A DNA stretch of 64,000 bases from a bacterium (GTDB lineage: Bacteria > Myxococcota > UBA727 > JAUIJE01). The notes beneath the pieces were generated by a model, which saw only the letters and a program-made list of their open reading frames with translations, had not been told where the DNA came from and made no database searches. The position numbers and the translations under genes are program-made. Positions within the stretch are counted from its first letter, which is position 1, and each line of letters opens with the position of its first letter. This document shows, piece by piece, positions 23,737-38,741 of this stretch. The stretch covers positions 193,294 to 257,293 of the forward strand of contig JAUIJE010000002.1 in the NCBI GenBank assembly GCA_030431455.1, written 5' to 3'.

Positions 23737-24015
23737 ATGGCTGAGAATGTGTATCTGCTGAAGGTCTCGAGCGGGGTGTCCGGCGACGTGAAGAGCCGGC
23801 TGGACGTGAAGAAAGACCCGACCCACGTGCGGGTGGCCACGCTCGCGCCGCTGTCCAACTACGGCTACCCGCCGGGGGCGGAGGGTTCGCTGTTGAAGGT
23901 GAGCGGGGACGGCCTGGTGTTCGGCGTGGAGGGCAACGATGCGGTGCCGCGCGCGTTTGTGCCCTGGCAGAACGTCAGCTACGTGGCGGACGGTTCGCAG
24001 GTGACCAAGGGCTGA
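23737..24015 (+). CDS. Hypothetical small protein (92 aa)
   Basis: A perfect AGGAGG RBS lies 7 nt upstream of the ATG. The gene is divergent from the 133-aa gene. Confidence 0.6.
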   Translation: MAENVYLLKVSSGVSGDVKSRLDVKKDPTHVRVATLAPLSNYGYPPGAEGSLLKVSGDGLVFGVEGNDAVPRAFVPWQNVSYVADGSQVTKG

Positions 24016-24527: not shown

Positions 24528-25979
24528 CTATTCCCGCACGTCACACCGGAGCAAGAAGCCCGGCCGGCACGGGTCGTACACCCCGACGTAGGTCTGGTCC
24601 GCCCAACAATCGCAGCAGCAATACTTGTCGTAGGTGTACTGCGCGTTCGCGGGGCATTCGGTCTGCGTGCACCCGACGACGTCCGCGTCACAAAAGAACC
24701 CCTCGATGCAGCCTGATTCGCCCCCGCACGGGGTGGGGTCGGCGACGGCGTACGCCGGGCACGGCTCGTCGTCGCATTCGTGCCCGAGCCCGTCGTTGTC
24801 CGAGTCCACCTGGTCGGGGTTGTACACCCCCGGGCAGTTGTCGGTGAGGTCGAACACCCCGTCGCCGTCGATGTCGTCGGCGAACTGGGTGCGGTCCTTT
24901 TCACAGTAGACGAGCACGTGTTCGTAACGTTTTTGCCCTGTGCGCTCCGCCTGCAGGTTGACCGGTTGGCCGAGCACAAACTCGCGCCATATCTCGCCCG
25001 AACGGATGTCGCGCAGGCCGAACTCGTCGTCGATGGCCCCGAGCGGGAGGTCCACGGTGGTGCTGCGCCCGGCCTCTTCCATCGTGGTCAGGACCTGCGG
25101 GGTCGTGACGTAGATTTGGTTGCGGATGACGTAGTCGGCGCCCACCTTGGCGAGGTGCGCGCTGTGCGCAATGTTGTTGCGCTCGCCCACGGGTCCCTCG
25201 GCCCGGTCCGCGAGCAGGAACACCACCTCGTGTCCGCTGTCCACTTTTGCCTTCATCGCGTCCAGGGCGGCCGCGTCCACCGGGGTGCCGGGCGGAAAGT
25301 CGTAACAAGGCTCGAAGTAGATGTTCAAAATCGTCTGCAGCGAGCGCGCGGAGAAGTTGCGGCTCGAGCTTTGGAGCGCGTCGGTGCTGCACACCTCGAG
25401 CTCCTCGAGCCCGATGTCGGTCACCTGCGAGACGTCCTCGAGGCTGCGCCCGCGCACCCCGCGCCAAGACTCGAACAAGCGGTCGCGGGTGCCGGCGTGG
25501 CAGTTTTTGCCCACCACCTTGACGGAAAAGCCCTCGATGGTGCCCACCGCGCCCCCCTCCGCGTCGACCACGAACAGGTGGTGGTCGTCATAGAACGCAT
25601 CGAGGTCGTCGCCCGGCTGCTCGAACAGCTTGAGCTCGGTGCCCTCCAGCAGCCCGGGCACGGGGATGCGCAATGTCACCGGACGGGAAAAGCGCAGGCC
25701 GTGCGGCTCGAGCTTCACCCCCGCGAACACGTCGAGCTCGGCGAGGTCGGGAAAGACCAAGGGCGTGACCGTGACCGCGGTGTCCTCTTCGAGCGCGCCC
25801 GCGGGGATGTCGAGCAACAGGCCAGTGGGCAGTTCGATCACCGCGCCCTCGGCGGCGGTCACCGTCACCGTCTCGGCCGCGTCCTCGTCGAGGGTGATGG
25901 TCGGCCCGAGCCCACACGCGGTCGGGTCACATGCGGCGAAGGCGAAGAGCGGCCAGAGCGTACGCGCGATTTTGCCCAT
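24528..25979 (-). CDS. Lipoprotein with thrombospondin type-3 (Ca-binding) repeats and a conserved Cys-rich C-terminal module
   Basis: It has a lipobox (LFAFAAC) and TSP3 motifs (DIDGDGVFDLTDNCPGVYNPDQVDSDNDGLGHECD). The C-terminal ~90 aa are ~75% identical to the C-terminus of the next gene. Confidence 0.8.
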   Translation of the reverse strand: MGKIARTLWPLFAFAACDPTACGLGPTITLDEDAAETVTVTAAEGAVIELPTGLLLDIPAGALEEDTAVTVTPLVFPDLAELDVFAGVKLEPHGLRFSRPVTLRIPVPGLLEGTELKLFEQPGDDLDAFYDDHHLFVVDAEGGAVGTIEGFSVKVVGKNCHAGTRDRLFESWRGVRGRSLEDVSQVTDIGLEELEVCSTDALQSSSRNFSARSLQTILNIYFEPCYDFPPGTPVDAAALDAMKAKVDSGHEVVFLLADRAEGPVGERNNIAHSAHLAKVGADYVIRNQIYVTTPQVLTTMEEAGRSTTVDLPLGAIDDEFGLRDIRSGEIWREFVLGQPVNLQAERTGQKRYEHVLVYCEKDRTQFADDIDGDGVFDLTDNCPGVYNPDQVDSDNDGLGHECDDEPCPAYAVADPTPCGGESGCIEGFFCDADVVGCTQTECPANAQYTYDKYCCCDCWADQTYVGVYDPCRPGFLLRCDVRE

Positions 25980-27502
25980 CAGCGCACCTCGCAGCGCAGC
26001 AGGAAGCCCGGCCGGCATGGGTCATAGACATTGCGGTAGGTCTGGTCCGCCCAACAATCACAGCAACAATATTTGTCGAAGGTGTACGAGGCGTTGTCGG
26101 GGCACATCTCCTGGGTGCAGCCCGCGACCTGGGGGTCACAGAAGAACCCTTCGATGCAGCCGCTCGGCCCCCCGCACGCGCCGGTCACCTCTTCGTATTC
26201 GGGACAAGCGGTGTCGTCGCACTCGTTGCCGAGGCCGTCCCCGTCGGAGTCGATCTGGTCGGGGTTGGCCACCGCCGGGCAGTTGTCGACGTCGCTGTCG
26301 ATGCCGTCCCCGTCGGGGTCCGACTCTTGGCAGTAGGCGCCGTGCGCGGCCACCGCCGGGTCGGGCCGGGTGCTCGGTGGCCCGCCGGCTTTGTAGCGGT
26401 AGATTTGGCGTGACGCGTAGCGGGCGTCGGGGGCGCCCGGCCACCACGCGCCGAAGTAGTAGGGTGCGTCGATGGCCGCGTCGAACAGCCCGCTGTGGTT
26501 GTCGGCGTTGCGCACGGTGATCGCGCCGCCGTCGTTGTCCAAGACCTCGGCCACGTGACCGGCCGCCCGCACCCCCTCGTCGTCGGGGGCGCTGAAATAG
26601 AACACCAGGTCGCCGGGGCGGGCCGCGCCGTCGTCGGTGACCGGCTCGATGAGGTCGGCGGCGAGCAGCGCGGTGAGCAGGCGCGGGGCCGAGCCGTTCC
26701 AGGGCCGGCCTTGGTTGACCCCGCGGGTCACGTAGCCCGCGCAGTTGAACGCCGATGTGGCTTGCCCCGCGAACACCGCGTCGTCGGTCACGTAGGTGCC
26801 GCCGCCGGCGGCGACCTGCTCGGCCAGCCGGGCGCGTTCGTCCTCGTCCACGGTCTCGATGAACGTCTCGCGCCCCTCGATGAACACCTCTTGTTCGACG
26901 TTGTCCCCGTCCAGCACCGTGACGGGGCTGCCGTCGGGGCGCAGCAACACCTGGCGGCGGGTGCACGACGCGGGACCCCGCGGTGCCTGGTAGGTGGGCG
27001 GGTCCCGGCGGGCGTGTTCGTAGACCTCGACGGTGGTGTAGTGGCCGTCTTTGTCGATGTCCGCGCGCTCGAGCACGAGGATGTGCTCCACCGCCGCGGC
27101 GGGGAACTTGCTGTGCGGGCCGTCGCCATAGGCGAACGCGGCGTCGCGCAAATAGGGGATAGCGGCGTCATCGTCGCGTTCGGCCAGGGCGAAGGCGAGC
27201 ACCATCAGGCTCATTTCGGTGTGCACGGTGTCGTCGGTGACGTCGGCGGACAGGCCGGCGAGGGCTTCACCCAGCGCGGCGGTGGTGCCGTCTGCGCCCT
27301 GGACCAGGGTGTCCAGGTCCTCGATCACCACCGGGATGCGGGCCTGGACCCCCCGCATCGAGCCGCTGGCGGTGAGCAGGGGCTCGACCACCGCCGGGTC
27401 CTGCACGTGTTCGATCGCGGCTTGGACCTCGGCGGGCACCGCGCTGGGGCAGCCCGCGAGCAAGGTCGTCGCAGCAAAGAAAATCACGTGTGTCTTCGGC
27501 AT
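25979..27502 (-). CDS. Lipoprotein with a CHAP/NlpC-P60-like domain, TSP3 repeats and the same Cys-rich C-terminal module
   Basis: It has a lipobox (LLAGC) and a CHAP-like Cys/His pair (AFNCAGYV ... GHVAEV). The TSP3 repeats read DPDGDGIDSDVDNCPAVANPDQIDSDGDG. Its C-terminus is shared with the 24528..25979 gene. Confidence 0.8.
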   Translation of the reverse strand: MPKTHVIFFAATTLLAGCPSAVPAEVQAAIEHVQDPAVVEPLLTASGSMRGVQARIPVVIEDLDTLVQGADGTTAALGEALAGLSADVTDDTVHTEMSLMVLAFALAERDDDAAIPYLRDAAFAYGDGPHSKFPAAAVEHILVLERADIDKDGHYTTVEVYEHARRDPPTYQAPRGPASCTRRQVLLRPDGSPVTVLDGDNVEQEVFIEGRETFIETVDEDERARLAEQVAAGGGTYVTDDAVFAGQATSAFNCAGYVTRGVNQGRPWNGSAPRLLTALLAADLIEPVTDDGAARPGDLVFYFSAPDDEGVRAAGHVAEVLDNDGGAITVRNADNHSGLFDAAIDAPYYFGAWWPGAPDARYASRQIYRYKAGGPPSTRPDPAVAAHGAYCQESDPDGDGIDSDVDNCPAVANPDQIDSDGDGLGNECDDTACPEYEEVTGACGGPSGCIEGFFCDPQVAGCTQEMCPDNASYTFDKYCCCDCWADQTYRNVYDPCRPGFLLRCEVR

Positions 27503-29860: not shown

Positions 29861-31057
29861 TCACCGAAACGCGCTCTGTCCGGTCAACGCGTGGCCCACC
29901 ACCAGCTGGTGCACGTCGTGGGTGCCTTCGTAGGTATACACAGTTTCAAGATTGCTCATGTGGCGCATGATGCCGTACTCGTCCATGATGCCGTTGCCCC
30001 CCAGAATGTCTCTGCATGTGCGCGCGATGTGCAAAGCGGTCTCGACATTGGCCATCTTCGCCATCGAGGTGCGCGCGCCTTCAATGTCACCGCCCTTTTC
30101 CACGGCCTCGTCCTTGAGCCGGCCAAAACGCCAGGCCAAAAGCTGCGCGTGGGTGAGCCGCGCCGACATCTGGGCGAACTTCTGCTGCACCAACTGAAAC
30201 CCCGCGATGGGCCGCCCGAACGCCATGCGCTCCTTGGCGAAATCGAGCGCGGTGGCAAAACAATCCTCGGCCGCCCCGAGCACCCCCCAACAAATCCCGT
30301 ACCGGCCCTGGTTGAGCACCGCGAGGGCGCTCTTGAGCCCATCGGTGCCGGGCAAGAGCGCCTCGTCGGGCACGAACACGTCGTCGAGCATGAGCTCGGC
30401 GGTGTCCGAGGCTCTGAACGACTGTTTGCCGTCGAGCTTGTGCCGGGAAAATCCGTCCGCGTCGGTGGGCACGACGAAGCCGCGAATGCTGCTGGCGCCT
30501 TGCCCGGTCCGGGCCCAGACGATCGCGATGTCGGCCAAGGTCCCGTTGGTGATCCACCGCTTGGTCCCCGAGATGCGCCAGCCGCCGTCCACCTTCGTGG
30601 CCCGGGTGCTCATGTTGCCGGGGTCGCTGCCCGCGTCGGGTTCGGACAGGCCAAAACAGCCCACCAATGTGCCTGCGGCGAGCTGGGGCAGGAGCTCTTC
30701 TTTGTGCTGGGCGGACCCGAAGGTGAAGATCGGGTACATGCACAAATTGCTCTGTACCCCGACCATGGAGCGCACGCACGAGTCCGCGCGTTCGAGCTCG
30801 CGCATACACAGCCCATAGGCCACGTAGTTGAGCGTGGGCCCGTCCCCGAGGTCCAAGGTCGCGCCGAACAGCCCGAGCTCGGCCAGCTCCCGCATGATCG
30901 GCAATGGGGCTGCATCGCGCCAGGCCTGCGCCACGTGGGGCCGGACCTTGGCCTCGACAAAACGGCGCACGCTGTCGCGCGCGGCGCGCTCCTCTTCGGT
31001 GAGCAGGTCTTCGAAGGCAAAGAAGTCGAGCGGATTGGGCATGCCGCGTTCTAGCAC
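29861..31057 (-). CDS. Acyl-CoA dehydrogenase (glutaryl-CoA dehydrogenase-like)
   Basis: It has ACAD family motifs (GLSEPDAGSD, the RWITNG-like KRWITNG, and a C-terminal YEGTHDV). The start could instead be the internal Met at 31042. Confidence 0.9.
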   Translation of the reverse strand: MLERGMPNPLDFFAFEDLLTEEERAARDSVRRFVEAKVRPHVAQAWRDAAPLPIMRELAELGLFGATLDLGDGPTLNYVAYGLCMRELERADSCVRSMVGVQSNLCMYPIFTFGSAQHKEELLPQLAAGTLVGCFGLSEPDAGSDPGNMSTRATKVDGGWRISGTKRWITNGTLADIAIVWARTGQGASSIRGFVVPTDADGFSRHKLDGKQSFRASDTAELMLDDVFVPDEALLPGTDGLKSALAVLNQGRYGICWGVLGAAEDCFATALDFAKERMAFGRPIAGFQLVQQKFAQMSARLTHAQLLAWRFGRLKDEAVEKGGDIEGARTSMAKMANVETALHIARTCRDILGGNGIMDEYGIMRHMSNLETVYTYEGTHDVHQLVVGHALTGQSAFR

Positions 31058-31078: not shown

Positions 31079-32455
31079 TCAGGCCGCGGGCGGCGCGGGC
31101 CAGCGCTCCCAGGTCGGGCCCCACACGACCTTCGAGGCGACAAAGTGCAGGGGGTCGTCCTTCGGCCAGGGGCTCGCGAACGGCTCTTCCACGAGGGCGA
31201 ACTCCCCGTTGTCGAACGGCGCGCCGCTCGCCTTACGTTTTTGGTGCGTGCGCTCGCGCAGGCCGCGGCCCTTTTGGACCAGTGCGCGGTGGTGGCAGTA
31301 AGGGTTATTGCCCCGGCGGTCGAAAAACACGTGGCTGGTCCAGCTGCAGCCCGCGCGGCACAACGATTTGTATTCGCACGTGGCGCAAAAGCCCCAGAGG
31401 TGCTTTTCGCCTTCGGGGGTGCCGCCGCCCATGTTGATGAGCAGCTCTTTGGTTTGCAGAATGTCACTGAGTCGCGTGTCGCGGATGTTGCCCCCGGTGT
31501 ACGCGCTGGTGGGCAGAGACGGGCAGCCTTTGATCGCCCCGTCGGCTTCGATGCCGAGGGCGTGCAGGCCCGCTTGGCAGCCGCGCCAAAAGCCCCACTC
31601 CCCCGCGGTGCGGCCGCGGAACAGCCGTTCGTAGGGGCCGTAATAGCCAATGTTATTGCCGGGAAGGACGGTCACGCCCTCTTGGTTGGCGCGGTTCACC
31701 ACCCGGGCGACCATGGGGTACATGTCGAGCAGCTCGGCGGGTTGCATCAGGATGTCGTGGTTGTCGGCGGCGTTGCCCATGGGCACGGTGAGCTGAATCT
31801 GCCAGGCGGTGGCCCCCGCGCGCTGGATGTATTCGTAGAGCGTGGGGAACTGCGGCGCGCTTTTGCGGTTGAGCTGGGTGTTGACCCCGCAGAGCATGCC
31901 CACGTCGGAGAAGTGGCCCAGCGACCGAAAACACGCGTCCCAGCTGCCGGGCTTGCCGCGCAGCTCGTCGTGCACATCGCGCAGGCCGTCGATGCTCACG
32001 CTCACCCGGGCGATGCCCGCGTCGACCATGCGCCGGGCGGTCTCGCGGCTGATGCCGTAGCCGCCGGTGGTCATGGTCGCGATCATGCCCACGTCGTTGA
32101 TTTTGCGCGCGAGGTCGAGCCAATCCGGCCGCAGGTAGGCTTCGCCCCCGATGAGCGTGACCTCGGTGATGCCGTTTTGCGCCATCTGTTCGATGAGGTC
32201 GAACGCCTCTTCGGTGGTGAGCTCGTCGGTGCGCGCGTCGCCGGCCCGGGACCCGCAGTGGCTACAGGCCAAATTACACTTGAGGGTAATTTCCCAGACC
32301 GCGTAGGACTGGCGCTGGTACTCGACGAGTTTGCCCCGGGCTTCGTCGCGCAACGAGGGCAATAGATCGCGGGCGCGCGACTTGGTGAGCGGCACCGGGC
32401 CCACGGTGGTGTTGGCGACCGCGTCGCCGTTGTTCAGGATTTTGAAGTCGACCAT
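31079..32455 (-). CDS. Radical SAM enzyme with a C-terminal SPASM domain (peptide/protein-modifying type)
   Basis: It has the motif CNLACSHCG (CxxxCxxC) after a ~58-aa N-terminal extension. The SPASM Cys cluster reads GCPS...GFCATCEYKSLCRAGC. A ~70-aa C-terminal tail follows. Confidence 0.9.
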   Translation of the reverse strand: MVDFKILNNGDAVANTTVGPVPLTKSRARDLLPSLRDEARGKLVEYQRQSYAVWEITLKCNLACSHCGSRAGDARTDELTTEEAFDLIEQMAQNGITEVTLIGGEAYLRPDWLDLARKINDVGMIATMTTGGYGISRETARRMVDAGIARVSVSIDGLRDVHDELRGKPGSWDACFRSLGHFSDVGMLCGVNTQLNRKSAPQFPTLYEYIQRAGATAWQIQLTVPMGNAADNHDILMQPAELLDMYPMVARVVNRANQEGVTVLPGNNIGYYGPYERLFRGRTAGEWGFWRGCQAGLHALGIEADGAIKGCPSLPTSAYTGGNIRDTRLSDILQTKELLINMGGGTPEGEKHLWGFCATCEYKSLCRAGCSWTSHVFFDRRGNNPYCHHRALVQKGRGLRERTHQKRKASGAPFDNGEFALVEEPFASPWPKDDPLHFVASKVVWGPTWERWPAPPAA

Positions 32456-32558
32456 CGTCGGTCTCCCACAATGAAACTGGACAATGTTGCCGGTTCAGGC
32501 CCCGAAACGAAAAGAGGGAGGGCGACCCCTCCCTCTTTTGTTCAGCGCGAGGCGTGCA

Positions 32559-33914
32559 TCACGAATCGCCACCCGCGGGGTTGACCCCGGTGAGCGGCGC
32601 GCCGATGGGCATGCCGTACATCGGGCGCACCACCGGGCCGCCGTCGATGGGGCCCACGTCGATGGGATTGGGCATGCCGTACATCGGCATGATGTCGATG
32701 GGCGACGGCCCCGGGGTCGGGGCCGGGCCGGGGCCCACGTCGATGGGGTTGGGCATGCCGTACATCGGCAGGATGTCGATGGGGTCGATGATGTTCAGCC
32801 CGATGTAGGTCTCGAGCTTGGCCTTGGCGTCGGCGTCGATGAACTGCGCGACGTCGTTGAGGATGAGCTGGAGGTCTTCCTTCTCGGTCTTGGACAGCCG
32901 GCCCCCGTCGTTGGCGGCTTTGATCAAGGCCTCGGCGTCGGCTTTGTCGATGCGGAAGTCTTGCAGCATGCCCTCGAACGCTTCGCGCAGGCCCTTGTCC
33001 TTGAGCTGGCGCGAGAGGCTCGGCACCGCCACGCCGTACATCGGGGCGATGGGCGGCTCGGGCGGGTGAATGTTGGGCTCGTCTTTGATCGCGGCCATCA
33101 ACAGCGCCTTGGCCGTCGAGGTCAGGCGCAGGCTGCTCACAATGGTGGATAGGTCGTTCTTCTGCGCGTCGGAGAGCGAACCGAGGCCGTTCTGTTCGTC
33201 GAGGGCGGCCTGCACCAGACCGCTCGCCTCGTTGGCGTCGATTTGGAAGTCGCCCATCATGCCGCGCAGCGCGTCGCGGATGGCGCCGGTCTGGAGGTTG
33301 AGGCCGTCGGGCGAGCTCATGAGCTGGTCGTTGATGATCTGGTGCGCTTGGCCGGTGAGCTCAAACGTGAGGTTGTGGAGGATGCGCTCGAGGTCCTGCC
33401 GCTCGCGGGCGGTCATCACCCCGCCGTCGAGGGCCGCTTCCACCAGCTGCTTGGCTTCGACGTCGGTGATTTTGCTGTCCTGCATCACCTTGTCGAACAC
33501 CTCGCGCAGCTGCACGTCGCTGGGCCGCGCCGCAAACTCGGGGGGCATGGGCATCCCGTACATCGGCAAGAAGATGTTGGGGTCGACGGGCAGGCTCACC
33601 GCCGGGGTGTCGGGCTGGGGCACGCGGAAGTTCACCTCGCCGGACTTTTGCACTTCGGCGTCGAGGGTCGCGCGGGCCTGGGCCACGTTTTGGTTGAGGG
33701 TGGCTTGGTTGGCCCAGCCCGAGCGGGGGAGGGCCTGGCCTTGGGCCGCGGTGGGCGCGCCGGTCGCGGTGCCGGCGGTCTGGTCCATCTTGTCGGCGGG
33801 GCCGGCGGGCTTTTTCGCCTCCACCTGGGCTTTTTGGGCCGCGGGGGCTTGCTCGGCCTGTCCGGTCTGGCCGATGCGGGGAGAAAATCCGGGTCCCTTG
33901 TTGATTTTGGTCAT
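32559..33914 (-). CDS. Cytoplasmic repeat protein. It has three ~63-aa helical repeats interleaved with five P-M-Y-G-(M/V)-P motifs and is a candidate rSAM substrate.
   Basis: The five motifs are PMYGMPMPP, PMYGVAVP, PMYGMPNPIDVGP (twice) and PMYGMPIGAP. The three repeats each read LRExF..M.QDF.ID...A..L..AA.DGG...T..E..DL..IL. There is no signal peptide. The gene is immediately upstream of the rSAM/SPASM gene on the same strand. Confidence 0.8.
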   Translation of the reverse strand: MTKINKGPGFSPRIGQTGQAEQAPAAQKAQVEAKKPAGPADKMDQTAGTATGAPTAAQGQALPRSGWANQATLNQNVAQARATLDAEVQKSGEVNFRVPQPDTPAVSLPVDPNIFLPMYGMPMPPEFAARPSDVQLREVFDKVMQDSKITDVEAKQLVEAALDGGVMTARERQDLERILHNLTFELTGQAHQIINDQLMSSPDGLNLQTGAIRDALRGMMGDFQIDANEASGLVQAALDEQNGLGSLSDAQKNDLSTIVSSLRLTSTAKALLMAAIKDEPNIHPPEPPIAPMYGVAVPSLSRQLKDKGLREAFEGMLQDFRIDKADAEALIKAANDGGRLSKTEKEDLQLILNDVAQFIDADAKAKLETYIGLNIIDPIDILPMYGMPNPIDVGPGPAPTPGPSPIDIMPMYGMPNPIDVGPIDGGPVVRPMYGMPIGAPLTGVNPAGGDS

Positions 33915-34038: not shown

Positions 34039-35190
34039 ATGCGCCTTGGCCTGTTTGTCACCCGGCTCGACCTCGGCGGCGCCCAGCAGGTGGTGCTCGA
34101 CCTCGCCGCGCACGCGGCCGGCCAGGGCGTCGACGTGATCCTGTACGCCGGCGCCGGGGGCGCGCTGGACGACGCCGCGCGGGCCTTGCCCGTCCAGGTG
34201 CGGCTCTTGCCGTGGTTGCCGCACGCGGTAGCACCAGGCGACGCGCTGGCCGTGCCCCGCTTGGCACAGTTGTTTCGCGCGGGCCGGCTCGACGTGCTGC
34301 ACACCCATTCGAGCAAAGCCGGCGCCCTCGGCCGGGTCGCGGCGAAGCTCGCGCGGGTGCCCGCGGTGGTGCACACCGTGCACGGCTGGAGCTTCAACGA
34401 CACACAATCGGCGGCCACCCAGCGCGCGTTCGTCGCCGTCGAGAGAGCCTGCGCCAAGCTCTCCGACGCGCTGGTGTGCGTGAGCGAACACGACCGCGCG
34501 CGCGGCCTGTCCCTGCACATTGGGCAAAAAGACCAGTACCGCATCCTGCGCGCGGGCATCGACGTCGAGCGGTTCTCGGCCCCCACCGGGGGGCCCGCCC
34601 TGCGCCAACGGCTCGGCATCCCCGACGGACACCGCGTGGTCGGGACCGTGGCCAATTTCAAGCCGCAAAAAGGTCCGCTCGACTGGGCCGAGGTCGCGGT
34701 GCGCGTCCTCCGCGCGCGCGATGACGTGCACGTGGTGTACGCCGGGGACGGCCCTTTGCGCAGCCTGGCCGAACAGCGCCTGGTCCACGCCGGCGTGCAC
34801 CAACGCGCGCACCTGCTCGGCTGGTGCGACGACGTGGACGCGGTCTACGCGGCCTCGGATGTGTTCTTGTTGATGTCGCACTTCGAGGGCCTGCCCCGCT
34901 CGGTGTTGCAGGCCATGGCCGGCCGCGTGCCGGTGGTGGCCACCGCCGTCGACGGCACCGCCGAAGTCGTGCGGCACGAGACCGGCTATCCCGTGGCCCG
35001 GGGGGACGTAGCCGGCGCGGCCGAGGCGGTGCTGGCCGCGCTCGAGGGCGACGAAGGCCGGGCCGCGCGCGCCCATGCCCAGTTGCCCGCGTTTTCGCTC
35101 GCCGCGATGCGGGACGGGCACATCGCCTTGTACGAGGAGCTCACGGCACCAGGCGCGCGGCGCGCTCGTCGAGCAGCTCGCGCTCGATGA
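34039..35190 (+). CDS. Glycosyltransferase family 1 (GT4-like)
   Basis: It has the GT-B fold signature including the EGLP motif (FEGLPRSVLQAMAGRVPVV). Confidence 0.85.
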   Translation: MRLGLFVTRLDLGGAQQVVLDLAAHAAGQGVDVILYAGAGGALDDAARALPVQVRLLPWLPHAVAPGDALAVPRLAQLFRAGRLDVLHTHSSKAGALGRVAAKLARVPAVVHTVHGWSFNDTQSAATQRAFVAVERACAKLSDALVCVSEHDRARGLSLHIGQKDQYRILRAGIDVERFSAPTGGPALRQRLGIPDGHRVVGTVANFKPQKGPLDWAEVAVRVLRARDDVHVVYAGDGPLRSLAEQRLVHAGVHQRAHLLGWCDDVDAVYAASDVFLLMSHFEGLPRSVLQAMAGRVPVVATAVDGTAEVVRHETGYPVARGDVAGAAEAVLAALEGDEGRAARAHAQLPAFSLAAMRDGHIALYEELTAPGARRARRAARAR

Positions 35191-36238
35191 GATAAGGCCC
35201 GATCAAACTCATGAACCCTGGGCTGTGCACAAATTGGCGCGCCACCTGCTGCACCGCCAAGGTCACGTCGCCGGTCTCGAGGGCGAGCAGGCGCACGGCG
35301 CAGAGCTCGGCCAGGACCTGCACGGCGAAATCGAACGCCTCGTACCGCGCGGGCACGTGGGTGTAGATGCGCCACGCGGCATATCGTGTATAGGCGCGCT
35401 CCCAGATCGGGTCTTCGCCCGGGCTCGCCGCGGCCAGGCGCGCCTCGATCTCGTCGAGCCCGCGCGCGCTTTTCGGCGGCGGGTCCTGGTCAAAAAAGCC
35501 GCGTACCTCGTCCAGGGTGGGCTGGGTCGCGAACACCAAACGCAACACCGGCTCGGTAAAAAGCGCGGACTGGGCGTGCATCACCCGGGCCACGAGCAGG
35601 TCGCGCCCCACCCGCGCGCGGGTCGCCATGTCATTGCACACGATGCCGGCCGGGGCCCCGTCGGGCCAGAGCATGGCCAAGAGCCGCTCGCGCACCGGGC
35701 GGGTCTCGTCGGTGAGCACGGCCATGACCCGGTCGCGGTGGGCCAATGAGTCTGCACCCACCTTCTTGTCGTGGCGCGCATCGGGCCCGTGCGCGACCTG
35801 CTCGAGGGCGAAGGGCGCGTCCAGGGCCAGCACCAGCCGCGCGATCTCCGGACACCCGAGGGTGGCCCCGACCTCGACGCGCCCGCCCACGTCGTTGGTC
35901 TGGCGCGGGTATTGGCGACAGATTTGCCCCAGGGGGGCTTGGCCGTGCGCGGCGATGACCACGCAGAGATTGTCCTCGCGCAAGAACGCGCAGCGACCGT
36001 TCGGCCGGGTGATGACCGCGGCCTCTTTTTCGGTGGGCTTTTGCACCGGGACCACGAGCTCGTCGAAGGGCGCGTGCAGTGACATGTCTTCGCCCGCCTT
36101 GCGCAGGCGGACCAGCTCGGGCTGGGTCAGGGACACGTCGAGCCCGATGCAGCAGCTGTCCGGGCAGTCGCCGGCGATGCACTCAAACGCCCCGACGTAG
36201 GCCGGGCGCACCGTGGGCAAGGTCGGCCGATCGGTCAT
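35141..36238 (-). CDS. YkgJ/UPF0153-type Cys-cluster (CxxCxxCC) protein
   Basis: The N-terminal motif CIAGDCPDSCC matches the putative Zn/Fe-chelating domain of the YkgJ family. Its 3' end overlaps the convergent GT gene. Confidence 0.7.
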   Translation of the reverse strand: MTDRPTLPTVRPAYVGAFECIAGDCPDSCCIGLDVSLTQPELVRLRKAGEDMSLHAPFDELVVPVQKPTEKEAAVITRPNGRCAFLREDNLCVVIAAHGQAPLGQICRQYPRQTNDVGGRVEVGATLGCPEIARLVLALDAPFALEQVAHGPDARHDKKVGADSLAHRDRVMAVLTDETRPVRERLLAMLWPDGAPAGIVCNDMATRARVGRDLLVARVMHAQSALFTEPVLRLVFATQPTLDEVRGFFDQDPPPKSARGLDEIEARLAAASPGEDPIWERAYTRYAAWRIYTHVPARYEAFDFAVQVLAELCAVRLLALETGDVTLAVQQVARQFVHSPGFMSLIGPYLIERELLDERAARLVP

Positions 36239-36278: not shown

Positions 36279-38741
36279 TCAGGCCAGCGAGGTGGTCGCT
36301 TTTTGTGACCACTCTTTGCGCGCCAAGCGCAACGTCATCGAGAAGGGTTCGAGGCCGATGGCCTTTTCCGCTTCCATCAGCGCCAACGCCCAGCTGCCCT
36401 GGTGCGCGGCCTGCATCGCCTTGGCCTGGTGCAACGCCGCGCGGTCCACCCGGTCGGGGAACACATGGTGCCAAGCCTCGCGCAGCATCTGCACGTCGGG
36501 GCCCTTCTTCTGCGCGGCCAGGCGCAGCCGCTCCTCGGCGCGCACGTGCCCGCAGCGGAAATCGTAGTGCAACCGCGCGCGCGGGTTGAGGAACAGCCGC
36601 TTGAGCTTGACCCCCACCGCCTGGGCCCGCTTGAGCCGTTCGCGCACCGGCGGGGACGCGCCCACCATCGCGGTGGCGACGAGGTCCTCGAGGTCCTGGA
36701 CCGCCCGCTGCACTTTGTCCGCGGGGGCGAGGGGGTCGTCGATGCCGATGGCCTCGTACATGCGCTGGGCGGCCACCGCCTTGAGGAACAGCCGGAGCCG
36801 CTCGGCCACCGAAAGCTGCGGGGTCTGCTCGACGGTCTCGATGTCGAAGTCGAGCTCTTCTTGGTCCTGGGCCTGGTCTTGCACCACCATCGCGGCCAAC
36901 GCCCGCTGGGCGGTGGGGCTGATGGTCAAAAACTTCACCCCGATGCCGCGTTGGCCGTTGGCCCCGACCCCGAGGCGGGTGACCTCGGCCCGGGCCCCGC
37001 CCCAGCCCCCGACGTCGAGCTCCACGTCGAGCTTGGTCCCCACCGGGTAGCTGTAGGGGGTCTCGATGAACAGCCCTTGGGCGGACACGTCGGTGGCCAC
37101 CGCGTCGACAAACTCGGACGCCCCGTGGCGCCGGAAGTGCAATGTCACTTGAGCCGGCGCGCGCCCCGACTGCCGCATCCGGCTCGGGTCCCCGGTGTTG
37201 GCCGTGCCCGGCCGCAGCGCCTTTTGTCCCGGCCCGTGCAGATAAAGGGGCAAGCGGCCGCCCTCGGTGGCCTCGACCTCGGCGGACAGCTCAAACCCCG
37301 CGGACATCGCCGCGTGCAGCTTGAGCCCCCCGGGGTTCTCGTCGAGCCAGTCGCCGGGCACCTCGAGCACCCCGAGCATTTCCCGGTCGATGCTGGTCAC
37401 GTCCACCGACTCGTACAGCGCGATCTTGAGCGGGGTGCCCGCCGCCGGCCGCATGGGCAACTCAATGACATTGGCGGTGGGCAGCCGCGCGTTCTGGGGC
37501 AGGGCGGTGCCGCCGGACAGCCCGGGGGCCATCACCCCGATGGGCAGGCTGAGCACGTCGACCAGCCGGCTCGCCCCCGCGCCGAGCAACGCCGCGCCCT
37601 GGGCCACCGCGCGCACCGCGTCGACCGACTCGGCGCTTTTCACCGCGGGGAACACCTGCTCCAGCCGGCGCCGGACCGCGGGCATCCGGGTCTGGCCCCC
37701 GACGAGAACCACCCCGTGCAACAGGTCAGGGCTGATGCCGGCCTTTTTGGTGGTCTCCTCGGCCAGGCCGATGGAGCGCTCGATGAGCTTGGCCACCGCG
37801 CCTTCGATCTCTTGGCGGCGCAGCACCTCGTCCATGTCGATGAACCGCTCGCCGTCGGTGAACACCACCGGGACCCGGACCCGAAACTCGCTCTCGGTGG
37901 ACAGCGCGATCTTGGCCTTCTCCGCGGCTTGGCGCACGCGCAGGGCGACCACCGGGTCGTCCATGATGTCGACCTGGTGTTTTTGCCGGATGCGCTCAGC
38001 CAGCAACAACGCAATCTCATTGTCGAAGTCGAGCCCCCCGAGGAACGACTCGCCCCCGGTGGCCATCACCCCCACGGTGTTTTCGTGGATGCGCAGCACG
38101 GTGACGTCGAGGGTGCCGCCCCCCAGGTCATAGACCATGACCATCGCGTCCTCGGGCGCGTTCATCGCGAACGAGAGCGCGGCCGCGGTGGGCTCGTTGA
38201 TCATCGCCTTGACGTTGAGCAAGCGCTCGGCCGCTTTGCGCAACAAGCTGCGCTGGCGGTACGAAAAGTGCGCCGGCACCGAGAGCACACACTCTTCGAA
38301 CGGCACCGGGGAGGCGATGTTGGCCAGCTCCACCACCCGGTCGAGCACCGCGAAGGCCACGTCCTCGAGCGCCCTCACTTTGCCATGCACAAACACTGCG
38401 GCGAGGCCGCTGTCGCCCTCACAAATCTCGTACGAAAACTGCCCCTGGTTGCGCCCCACAAACTCAGACAGGAACCGGCGCCCCAAAAACCGCTTCACCC
38501 CGTACACGGTCTCGGTGGGCGCATCGAGCAGGCGCCCCTTCGCCGACTCGCCGACCAGGATGCTCTCGCCCGGCATGTACGAGACGACGGTCGGCATTTC
38601 GTCCGTGGCCTCCCCCATGCGGACCACGTGCAACTCGCCGCGCTCGTCCAGCCACGCGGCCACGGTGTTGGTCGTACCGAAATCGATACCCAGAACGGGG
38701 GTCAATGGGCCTCCTGCAGAGGGTTCGACACGGTTTACCAC
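36279..38741 (-). CDS. Hsp70-family ATPase fused to a PilZ-like domain and a C-terminal helical region
   Basis: It has the Hsp70 NBD motifs GIDFGTTNT and DLGGGTLD. A PilZ-like segment follows: RMRQSGR ... DVSAQGLFI ... GIGVKF. Confidence 0.85.
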   Translation of the reverse strand: MVNRVEPSAGGPLTPVLGIDFGTTNTVAAWLDERGELHVVRMGEATDEMPTVVSYMPGESILVGESAKGRLLDAPTETVYGVKRFLGRRFLSEFVGRNQGQFSYEICEGDSGLAAVFVHGKVRALEDVAFAVLDRVVELANIASPVPFEECVLSVPAHFSYRQRSLLRKAAERLLNVKAMINEPTAAALSFAMNAPEDAMVMVYDLGGGTLDVTVLRIHENTVGVMATGGESFLGGLDFDNEIALLLAERIRQKHQVDIMDDPVVALRVRQAAEKAKIALSTESEFRVRVPVVFTDGERFIDMDEVLRRQEIEGAVAKLIERSIGLAEETTKKAGISPDLLHGVVLVGGQTRMPAVRRRLEQVFPAVKSAESVDAVRAVAQGAALLGAGASRLVDVLSLPIGVMAPGLSGGTALPQNARLPTANVIELPMRPAAGTPLKIALYESVDVTSIDREMLGVLEVPGDWLDENPGGLKLHAAMSAGFELSAEVEATEGGRLPLYLHGPGQKALRPGTANTGDPSRMRQSGRAPAQVTLHFRRHGASEFVDAVATDVSAQGLFIETPYSYPVGTKLDVELDVGGWGGARAEVTRLGVGANGQRGIGVKFLTISPTAQRALAAMVVQDQAQDQEELDFDIETVEQTPQLSVAERLRLFLKAVAAQRMYEAIGIDDPLAPADKVQRAVQDLEDLVATAMVGASPPVRERLKRAQAVGVKLKRLFLNPRARLHYDFRCGHVRAEERLRLAAQKKGPDVQMLREAWHHVFPDRVDRAALHQAKAMQAAHQGSWALALMEAEKAIGLEPFSMTLRLARKEWSQKATTSLA

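Follow-up and report, generated by a model that had tools for sequence, protein, structure and literature searches.

The A–X gene pair

This analysis concerns two adjacent genes, here called A and X, in a 64,000-nucleotide stretch of bacterial DNA (contig JAUIJE010000002.1, positions 193,294–257,293; G+C content ~67–70%), the whole of which is referred to below as the window. A is followed by X on the same strand with 103 bp between them, and the open reading frames (ORFs), coordinates and spacing given in the original prediction, which was made from the letters of the sequence, were borne out on the minus strand. We consider it likely, from sequence comparison and by analogy with characterised enzymes, that A and X constitute a two-gene spliceotide cassette, in which X would be a radical S-adenosylmethionine (SAM) splicease of the PlpX type and A its substrate. 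Enzymes of this family cut a tyramine equivalent (C8H9NO, 135.06–135.07 Da) out of the Tyr in an X-Tyr-Gly (XYG) site (PMC11414181, PMC11626197, PMC9811515). A reactive keto-amide stays behind. The features of the pair are as follows.

32559–33914, minus strand: gene A, a 451-aa ORF, predicted splicease substrate; Tyr-Gly is kept at all five motifs in three full-length relatives
31079–32455, minus strand: gene X, a 458-aa radical SAM/SPASM enzyme, predicted tyramine splicease
32500–32539, minus strand: hairpin between A and X, a perfect ~14-bp stem followed by a U-rich tract, terminator- or attenuator-like (z = -3.2)

Family placement of X

X carries two cysteine clusters, and its Pfam matches are limited to Radical_SAM, Fer4_12 and SPASM.

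32255–32278, minus strand: CX3CX2C radical SAM motif of X, CNLACSHC (residues 60–67), with C60, C64 and C67 invariant among homologues
31295–31579, minus strand: SPASM auxiliary-cluster region of X (residues 293–387), with seven invariant Cys

The best NCBIfam match of X is to TIGR04103 ('nif11-class peptide radical SAM maturase 3'), at 683 bits, covering model positions 1–405 of 412 and residues 46–450 of X; TIGR03913 is second at 398 bits (285 below), and all other NCBIfam families reach 150 bits or less. We take InterPro entry IPR026482 to be the one for TIGR04103. PlpX, the founding tyramine splicease, is assigned to IPR026482 (PMC11002830). X has thousands of homologues, the closest cyanobacterial ones (which carry the TIGR04103 name at NCBI and JGI) being 65–71% identical to it, and it shares 63–74% identity with the cyanobacterial and other homologues that were aligned. 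In a ten-sequence alignment of X, 69% of columns are identical on average, including those of the cluster cysteines and the entire C-terminal region.

The radical SAM motif and full SPASM cysteine cluster (C293, C311, C357, C360, C366, C370 and C387) that had been read from the sequence were confirmed, all of these residues being invariant in the homologue alignment. The long C-terminal tail remarked on in the original prediction is present but is conserved family-wide and lies within the family model. The N-terminal extension likewise exists, although the 58 aa first attributed to it reduce to about 43–45 aa beyond the start of the cyanobacterial homologues. It had been proposed to act like a RiPP recognition element (RiPP, ribosomally synthesised and post-translationally modified peptide). 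This proposal is not supported: the extension measures ~45 aa against ~85–100 aa for a PqqD-like winged helix and gave no PqqD-type match. An activator-like element is found instead in the N-terminus of A itself (see below). No splicease structure has been solved, and the PDB sequences nearest to X are those of SkfB, BlsE and PqqE.

The wording of the CNLACSHCG motif, which is like that of many SPASM enzymes, together with weak AhbD- and NirJ-type matches of 110–150 bits, could be taken to mean that X is a maturase outside RiPP biosynthesis (an anaerobic sulfatase-maturating enzyme, or a radical SAM enzyme of haem or other cofactor metabolism) and that A is an unrelated neighbour. We regard this as highly improbable. 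The AhbD- and NirJ-type matches fall far under the respective cut-offs of 500–650 bits, and the resemblance to sulfatase maturases that was initially noted did not hold, no such enzyme being present among the best 25 NCBIfam matches or among the PDB sequence matches. In addition, the pairing of A with X is kept down to ~28–30% identity in A while every flanking gene changes. As had been stated before, no sulfatase gene lies nearby, none being found in a Pfam and NCBIfam scan of the neighbours across ~24.5–41.3 kb of the window.

Predicted splice sites in A

A contains five P-M-Y-G motifs, with their tyrosines at residues 119, 293, 385, 412 and 433, and five of the six tyrosines of the protein fall inside them. 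The motifs had been described as PMYG(M/V)P; PMYG is indeed present five times and four copies read PMYGMP, but site 2 reads PMYGVA and has no Pro at +3. At least three MYG occurred in none of 200,000 residue shuffles of A.

33555–33563, minus strand: predicted splice site 1, M118-Y119-G120, context FLPMYGMPMP, in a predicted disordered linker
33033–33041, minus strand: predicted splice site 2, M292-Y293-G294, context PIAPMYGVAVP
32757–32765, minus strand: predicted splice site 3, M384-Y385-G386, context ILPMYGMPNP
32676–32684, minus strand: predicted splice site 4, M411-Y412-G413, context IMPMYGMPNP
32613–32621, minus strand: predicted splice site 5, M432-Y433-G434, context VVRPMYGMPI, of the five the nearest to the PlpA2 tag PIRPLYGLPI

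Across the A family (32 sites in 8 members) the YG dipeptide is present at 32/32 sites and Pro at -2 at 31/32, and the residue before Tyr is Met at 20 sites, Leu at 12 and nothing else. The resulting consensus, P-(V/I)-I-R-P-(M/L)-Y-G-(L/M/V)-P-x-P, is nearly that of the validated PlpA2 splice tag (Table 1 of PMC10533398), and the natural sites of PlpXY are MYG and LYG (PMC10533398). When four A sequences are aligned, three full-length proteins have Y-G at 5/5 positions and a 30%-identical relative lacks the last site; in this alignment the residue before Tyr alternates between Met and Leu. All five sites of A lie in linkers that an AlphaFold2 model assigns low confidence and that are presumably flexible or disordered.

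The same tyrosines were at first thought reminiscent of triceptide-type cyclophane formation, and X might act on them by some chemistry other than splicing, for example a Tyr crosslink such as a three-residue cyclophane. Radical SAM/SPASM enzymes are chemically versatile, and X scores just under the TIGR04103 cut-off and falls outside the cyanobacterial clade (discussed below), both of which leave some room for this explanation. We nevertheless think it unlikely, as the identity of X to family members is high and its match to the family model is full-length, the context of the sites is nearly that of the validated splice tag, and what is strictly kept is Y-G, the requirement for splicing, rather than an aromatic-X-X triad. 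The family searches with X also gave no pointer towards cyclophanes: none of the best NCBIfam matches is to a family that forms cyclophanes, everything beyond TIGR04103 and TIGR03913 staying within the 150 bits given above, in searches where no triceptide model was queried by name.

A putative Y-like activator element in the N-terminus of A

The first cyanobacterial splicease systems need a small Y protein (PMC11414181). Later binary systems work without Y, and in these a helix in the precursor leader has been proposed to bind X where Y does and to activate the enzyme; Y or the leader is also functional experimentally when fused to substrate or enzyme (PMC11414181). There is no separate Y ORF in the window, where the sole LPRSGW in a real ORF lies inside A.

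33642–33731, minus strand: putative Y-like activator element of A (residues 62–91), LPRSGW followed by an amphipathic helix, recognised from aligned leaders and small ORFs

These residues read LPRSGWANQATLNQNVAQARATLDAEVQKS, and the AlphaFold2 model places a helix at 70–91. In a Calothrix locus (L008), a 55-aa ORF directly after X reads ...LPLLPRSAWKSQITYLKVLLKAKQVL..., and in L006 a similar small ORF after X reads ...PLLPRSAWNDQLAKFRAVLQAKQAL..., so that an LPRS(G/A)W-helix is common to the leaders of A-type proteins and to the small ORFs after X in these two loci. The element stands at the same position in all relatives of A with a complete N-terminus and also in tandem-repeat precursors, and its L, R and W are invariant in twelve sequences. 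Its presence in A-type leaders fits the published result that a leader helix can replace Y (PMC11414181) and, because no separate Y ORF exists in the window, we infer that A–X is a binary system with the activator built into the substrate.

Conservation of the pair and related precursors

The A–X pair is syntenic in 5/5 related contigs that have enough flanking sequence.

L001: A 30% identical to that of the window, X directly after A, X 69% identical
L002: A 54% identical, one extra ORF between and then X, X 78% identical
L005 (a deltaproteobacterial metagenome-assembled genome, MAG): A 28% identical, X directly after A, X 66% identical
L010: A 35% identical, X directly after A
JGI contig with the A relative P0128: radical SAM/SPASM gene 102 nt after A

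This co-conservation supports the central proposal of the original prediction, that A is a multi-site substrate of the adjacent radical SAM/SPASM enzyme with the PMYG tyrosines as targets. None of the other window genes around A–X recurs beside the pair in the related loci, which leaves A and X together as the conserved unit.

Each of the five related loci in which A has helical domains shows a long perfect hairpin just after A (positions include 4437–4466 in L010, 1475–1495 in L001, 1330–1358 in L002 and 1630–1671 in L003), and its sequence differs between them. It is missing from the cassettes with tandem-repeat precursors and a third gene, Z (described below), in which the gaps are 16–24 nt. 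The hairpin suggests attenuation or stabilisation of the transcript in favour of substrate over enzyme. Expression of substrate over enzyme is a common layout of RiPP operons.

More distant homologues of X adjoin other XYG precursors, in which the site is MYG, LYG, RYG, KYG or VYG; three examples are listed.

L008 (Calothrix): Nif11-leader peptide with MYG and LYG beside X; the precursor matches TIGR03798
L009 (Eremiobacterota MAG): 254-aa protein with eight MYG units beside X
L007 (Bryobacteraceae MAG): peptide with two VYG sites beside X

Several contigs from Myxococcota and metagenomes have tandem repeats of RYG, KYG and LYG beside X. The precursors in L013 (3859–4464), L015 (7972–8589), L017 (7507–8622), L019 (3–491) and L025 (8116–8688) contain R-Y-G or K-Y-G in five to nine tandem units. 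Splicing of such precursors would yield keto-amides derived from Arg or Lys, for which trypsin-like proteases are plausible targets. In L015 a gene for a 1765-aa alpha-2-macroglobulin adjoins the cassette.

Comparison with known spliceotide systems

In Pleurocapsa, the type I systems PlpA/PlpX/PlpY and PcpA/X/Y (Morinaka et al. 2018 Science; PMC11414181, PMC10533398) employ an enzyme of the same NCBIfam family as X, whose identity to cyanobacterial members is 67–70% in this comparison. A–X resembles them in having MYG/LYG-type targets with several sites per precursor, in an A-family context, PxxRP(M/L)YG(L/M)P, that is close to the PlpA2 tag. It differs in that there is no discrete Y gene, the Y-like LPRSGW-helix lying within the substrate; A carries no Nif11 or NHLP leader, is 451 aa long and has three folded helical domains between its sites; X is extended by ~45 residues at its N-terminus and does not reach the family cut-off; and the host probably belongs to Myxococcota rather than to the cyanobacteria. 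With neither a separate Y gene nor a leader of the Nif11 or NHLP kind, A–X is thus not a type I member.

It fits instead the binary, leader-activated kind of spliceotide system described since 2022. The binary RhaX/RhaA and RcsX/RasX systems of Rheinheimera (PMC11414181, PMC11626197) have two components, as A–X does, and in them too a helix in the precursor's N-terminal region is proposed to fill the Y site and activate X; their products are keto-amide protease inhibitors. The Rheinheimera precursors are short, with one modified site and a Cys pair, whereas A has five sites and folded domains, and X is likened to RhaX by description, not by sequence.

The original prediction called the system undescribed. 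Given the full-length placement of X in the splicease family and the X-Tyr-Gly motifs, which are a known target, this did not stand: A–X is explained by the spliceotide system described between 2018 and 2024. Judged from its sequence, it is an unusually large new member. Scott et al. 2022, as cited in PMC10849128 and PMC10533398, counted 27 systems that had been characterised and 939 that were predicted, across 189 genera, and the precursor type of A may be among these 939. The system of the window is set apart by how large its substrate is, by the folded helical domains of no known family between the splice sites, by the lack of a peptidase or exporter nearby, and by a Z that is not linked to the pair.

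Several observations weigh against the assignment of A–X as a splicease cassette, or limit what may be expected of it. The 683 bits of X are below the curated TIGR04103 cut-off of 725, so that the equivalog threshold is not reached; by comparison, cyanobacterial X proteins score 814–832 bits, and non-cyanobacterial X proteins beside precursors with Y-like leaders 653–720. X is, as far as its sequence indicates, a close relative just outside the equivalog boundary. In a rough neighbour-joining tree, too, the named TIGR04103 members sit in a cyanobacterial clade to which X does not belong, the X proteins with A-type substrates forming neighbouring clades outside it. To equate the chemistry of X with that of the characterised spliceases PlpX and RhaX would be an extrapolation. 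By position and size, the small ORFs that follow X in L008 and L006 are putative Y proteins, site 2 (PMYGVA) deviates from the consensus, and no peptidase or exporter gene lies near A–X in the window or in the related loci, which bears on the mature form and location of the product. Lastly, not every XYG is processed in systems that have been studied, as the DYG site of RcsA is left untouched (PMC11626197), and until the Rheinheimera enzyme conversion had frequently been incomplete (PMC11626197). Accordingly, fewer than all five sites of A may be modified.

Helical domains of A and their relatives

A consists of a disordered N-terminus, the Y-like helix and five MYG sites with three helical domains between them.

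33321–33533, minus strand: helical repeat 1 (residues 128–198), no Pfam or NCBIfam family
33078–33302, minus strand: helical repeat 2 (residues 205–279), from the repeat alignment and AlphaFold2 model
32793–33020, minus strand: helical repeat 3 (residues 299–374), from the repeat alignment and AlphaFold2 model

The three helical repeats reported in the original prediction are real, with a length of ~70 aa. Repeat 1 aligns with repeat 3 at 39% identity across 51 aa (E = 2e-12), and twelve repeat copies from four proteins can be aligned, with the common core D-G-G-x-L-S-K-T-E-K-x-D-L. The AlphaFold2 model of A was built from a four-sequence alignment and is of moderate confidence overall (mean predicted local distance difference test score, pLDDT, 58); besides the leader helix it contains helical bundles at 125–276 and 307–371 with pLDDT 70–85.

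A gave no Pfam or NCBIfam match, and the helical repeats none even at E = 10. A profile search of the helical domain against PDB sequences returned nothing meaningful, and the model of A gave no match with E < 0.7 against the PDB by Foldseek. Nif11-like or Y-like recognition modules were considered and rejected as an identity for the repeats, which lack the corresponding family matches; comparison of the helical domain with the Y-like profile by hhalign gave nothing, indicating that the two are unrelated.

Only three relatives of A (30–54% identity) were retrieved by a word-indexed protein search, and a hidden Markov model search of 1.84 billion representatives yielded 96 proteins at E < 1e-3. 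These form three groups. The first has the same plan as A (P0126–P0129, P0131 and P0164); the second combines the same N-terminal element with tandem IRPMYGMP-type units and has no helical domains (P0153, P0180 and P0183); and the third lacks XYG and carries the helical domain either by itself or combined with further domains (e.g. P0130 and P0132–P0135). A metagenome scan with patterns derived from the A alignment found nothing, the patterns being poor. In the XYG-less proteins P0130, P0132–P0135, P0137, P0139 and P0149 the domain stands by itself, is repeated in tandem or forms the N-terminal end of a larger protein, with the core D-G-x-G-L-S-K-T-E-K-x-D-L. P0135 and P0149 have four copies each, every copy preceded by YYKIIDGKKYDRELLE.

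Proposed mechanism and fate of the product

By analogy with characterised systems, we infer splicing chemistry, activation by the leader helix and an inhibitor function for A–X, along the following lines. The LPRSGW-helix of A (residues 62–91) would dock on X and activate it, as Y proteins or the leader do in characterised systems. X would then cleave SAM at its CX3CX2C cluster and excise a tyramine equivalent from the Tyr at each exposed P-M-Y-G linker, after which the backbone would rejoin with the preceding Met converted to alpha-keto-beta-methionine. If all five sites reacted, A would lose up to 675.3 Da. The product would be a protein with up to five electrophilic keto-amides and small helical domains between them, and the keto-amides may act as protease-inhibiting warheads, as in spliceotides that have been tested.

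Besides the lack of processing and export genes near the pair, A has no obvious signal peptide (the N-terminus was inspected by eye, no predictor being used) and no double-glycine-type leader end; the product may therefore stay a protein. The other fate to be considered is that proteases whose genes lie elsewhere cut A into short keto-amide peptides, with the helical domains serving as spacers or repeated recognition modules, an explanation that departs from the splicease reading given above solely in what becomes of the product. Spliceotides are classed among the RiPPs, with the leader being removed (PMC11414181, PMC10885120), and related precursors that share the leader of A consist of 5–10 tandem XYG units without helical domains. 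However, neither a peptidase nor a transporter accompanies the pair, A does not have the leader end at which such precursors would be cut in the double-glycine manner, and the helical domain is a conserved module in ~90 other representative proteins, many of them XYG-less, which argues for a function of its own. We give this cleavage route roughly one chance in a few, a real but minority prospect.

Returning to splicing of A as an intact protein, we tentatively put forward a more specific and rather speculative proposal: that A is a mature multi-domain protein whose five keto-amide linkers, carried on unnamed helical domains, make it a polyvalent, genetically encoded protease trap with a built-in activator helix, and that Z is an undescribed third component of non-cyanobacterial spliceases. 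Few natural routes other than tyramine splicing lead to beta-amino acids and keto-amide warheads in products of the ribosome, and the reaction is under development for protein labelling and protease inhibitors. A folded substrate of 451 aa with five sites would, if the reading is right, mean that the splicease family acts on proteins in nature, beyond engineered tags, and the built-in activator helix of A would fit this. A could then also yield new splice tags and a compact two-gene tool, while Z and the RYG and KYG precursors are leads to more components and to inhibitors of trypsin-like proteases.

The small protein Z

In L009 and L013 a conserved ORF of ~95–118 aa follows X, and a homologue that is 50–61% identical was found in the window.

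23737–24015, plus strand: Z, 92 aa; homologues lie directly after X in 15/16 other loci

The A–X–Z cassettes, from Myxococcota, Eremiobacterota and metagenomes (L009, L013–L015, L016–L022 and L024–L026), have an X that is 54–71% identical to that of the window. They share with the window a leader element of the form (L/F)PR..W plus helix, core units of the form P-x-Y-G, and Z itself. Their precursors, unlike A, are 160–330 aa long, contain 5–10 tandem units, lack helical domains and often have Arg or Lys in front of the Tyr. In these cassettes Z stands directly after X, whereas in the window it is 7 kb from X and beside no radical SAM gene; the helical-A loci L001, L005 and L010 have no Z in the DNA examined. 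The only other unlinked Z found is in a metagenome contig (L023, 10001–10249), with no X or other splicease within 10 kb on either side.

Z belongs to a rare family, with 89 clusters in 5.8 billion that come for the most part from Myxococcota MAGs. Its AlphaFold2 model is a confident small beta-barrel (pLDDT 94.7) for which no confident fold relative was found. A role as a further substrate through its SNYGYP sequence was rejected, as that Tyr is Trp or Phe in 8/50 homologues. Proximity suggests that Z may be functionally linked to the only splicease of the window, and it may be a third component of these splicease systems. Between Z and A–X lie two adjacent genes for ~500-aa paralogues, which have weak matches to the MtsC / Omp28-related repeat and are rich in Cys at the C-terminus; there is a 40-nt overlap between the two ORFs.

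24528–26018, minus strand: first ~500-aa paralogue
25979–27502, minus strand: second ~500-aa paralogue

Neighbouring genes

The remaining genes close to the pair are listed below.

29861–31057, minus strand: acyl-CoA dehydrogenase gene, starting 21 nt past the stop of X on the same strand
34039–35190, plus strand: glycosyltransferase gene, divergent from A
35141–36238, minus strand: Cys-cluster protein (365 aa)
36279–38741, minus strand: 820-aa protein with an Hsp70/DnaK-like ATPase domain (residues 16–456) and a PilZ/TIGR02266-type domain (residues 523–619)

The divergent glycosyltransferase and the Cys-cluster neighbour had both been pointed out in the original prediction; both are present, but neither is conserved beside the pair elsewhere. 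The same holds for the acyl-CoA dehydrogenase, an EEP-family protein and the Hsp70-PilZ protein, and all five were rejected as members of the cluster. The Cys-cluster protein matches the FliB-type flagellin lysine-N-methylase model NF038110 at 129.5 bits, against a cut-off of 85. MYXO-CTERM and TIGR02266-type matches make the genome look myxobacterial; myxobacteria are not known to have flagella, and the target of this FliB-like protein must therefore be something else. L009 and L010, both splicease loci, likewise have adjoining PilZ genes, perhaps by coincidence. The acyl-CoA dehydrogenase gene may be co-transcribed with X; the position after X is taken elsewhere by a P450-like gene (L010) or a YkuD-like gene (L001).

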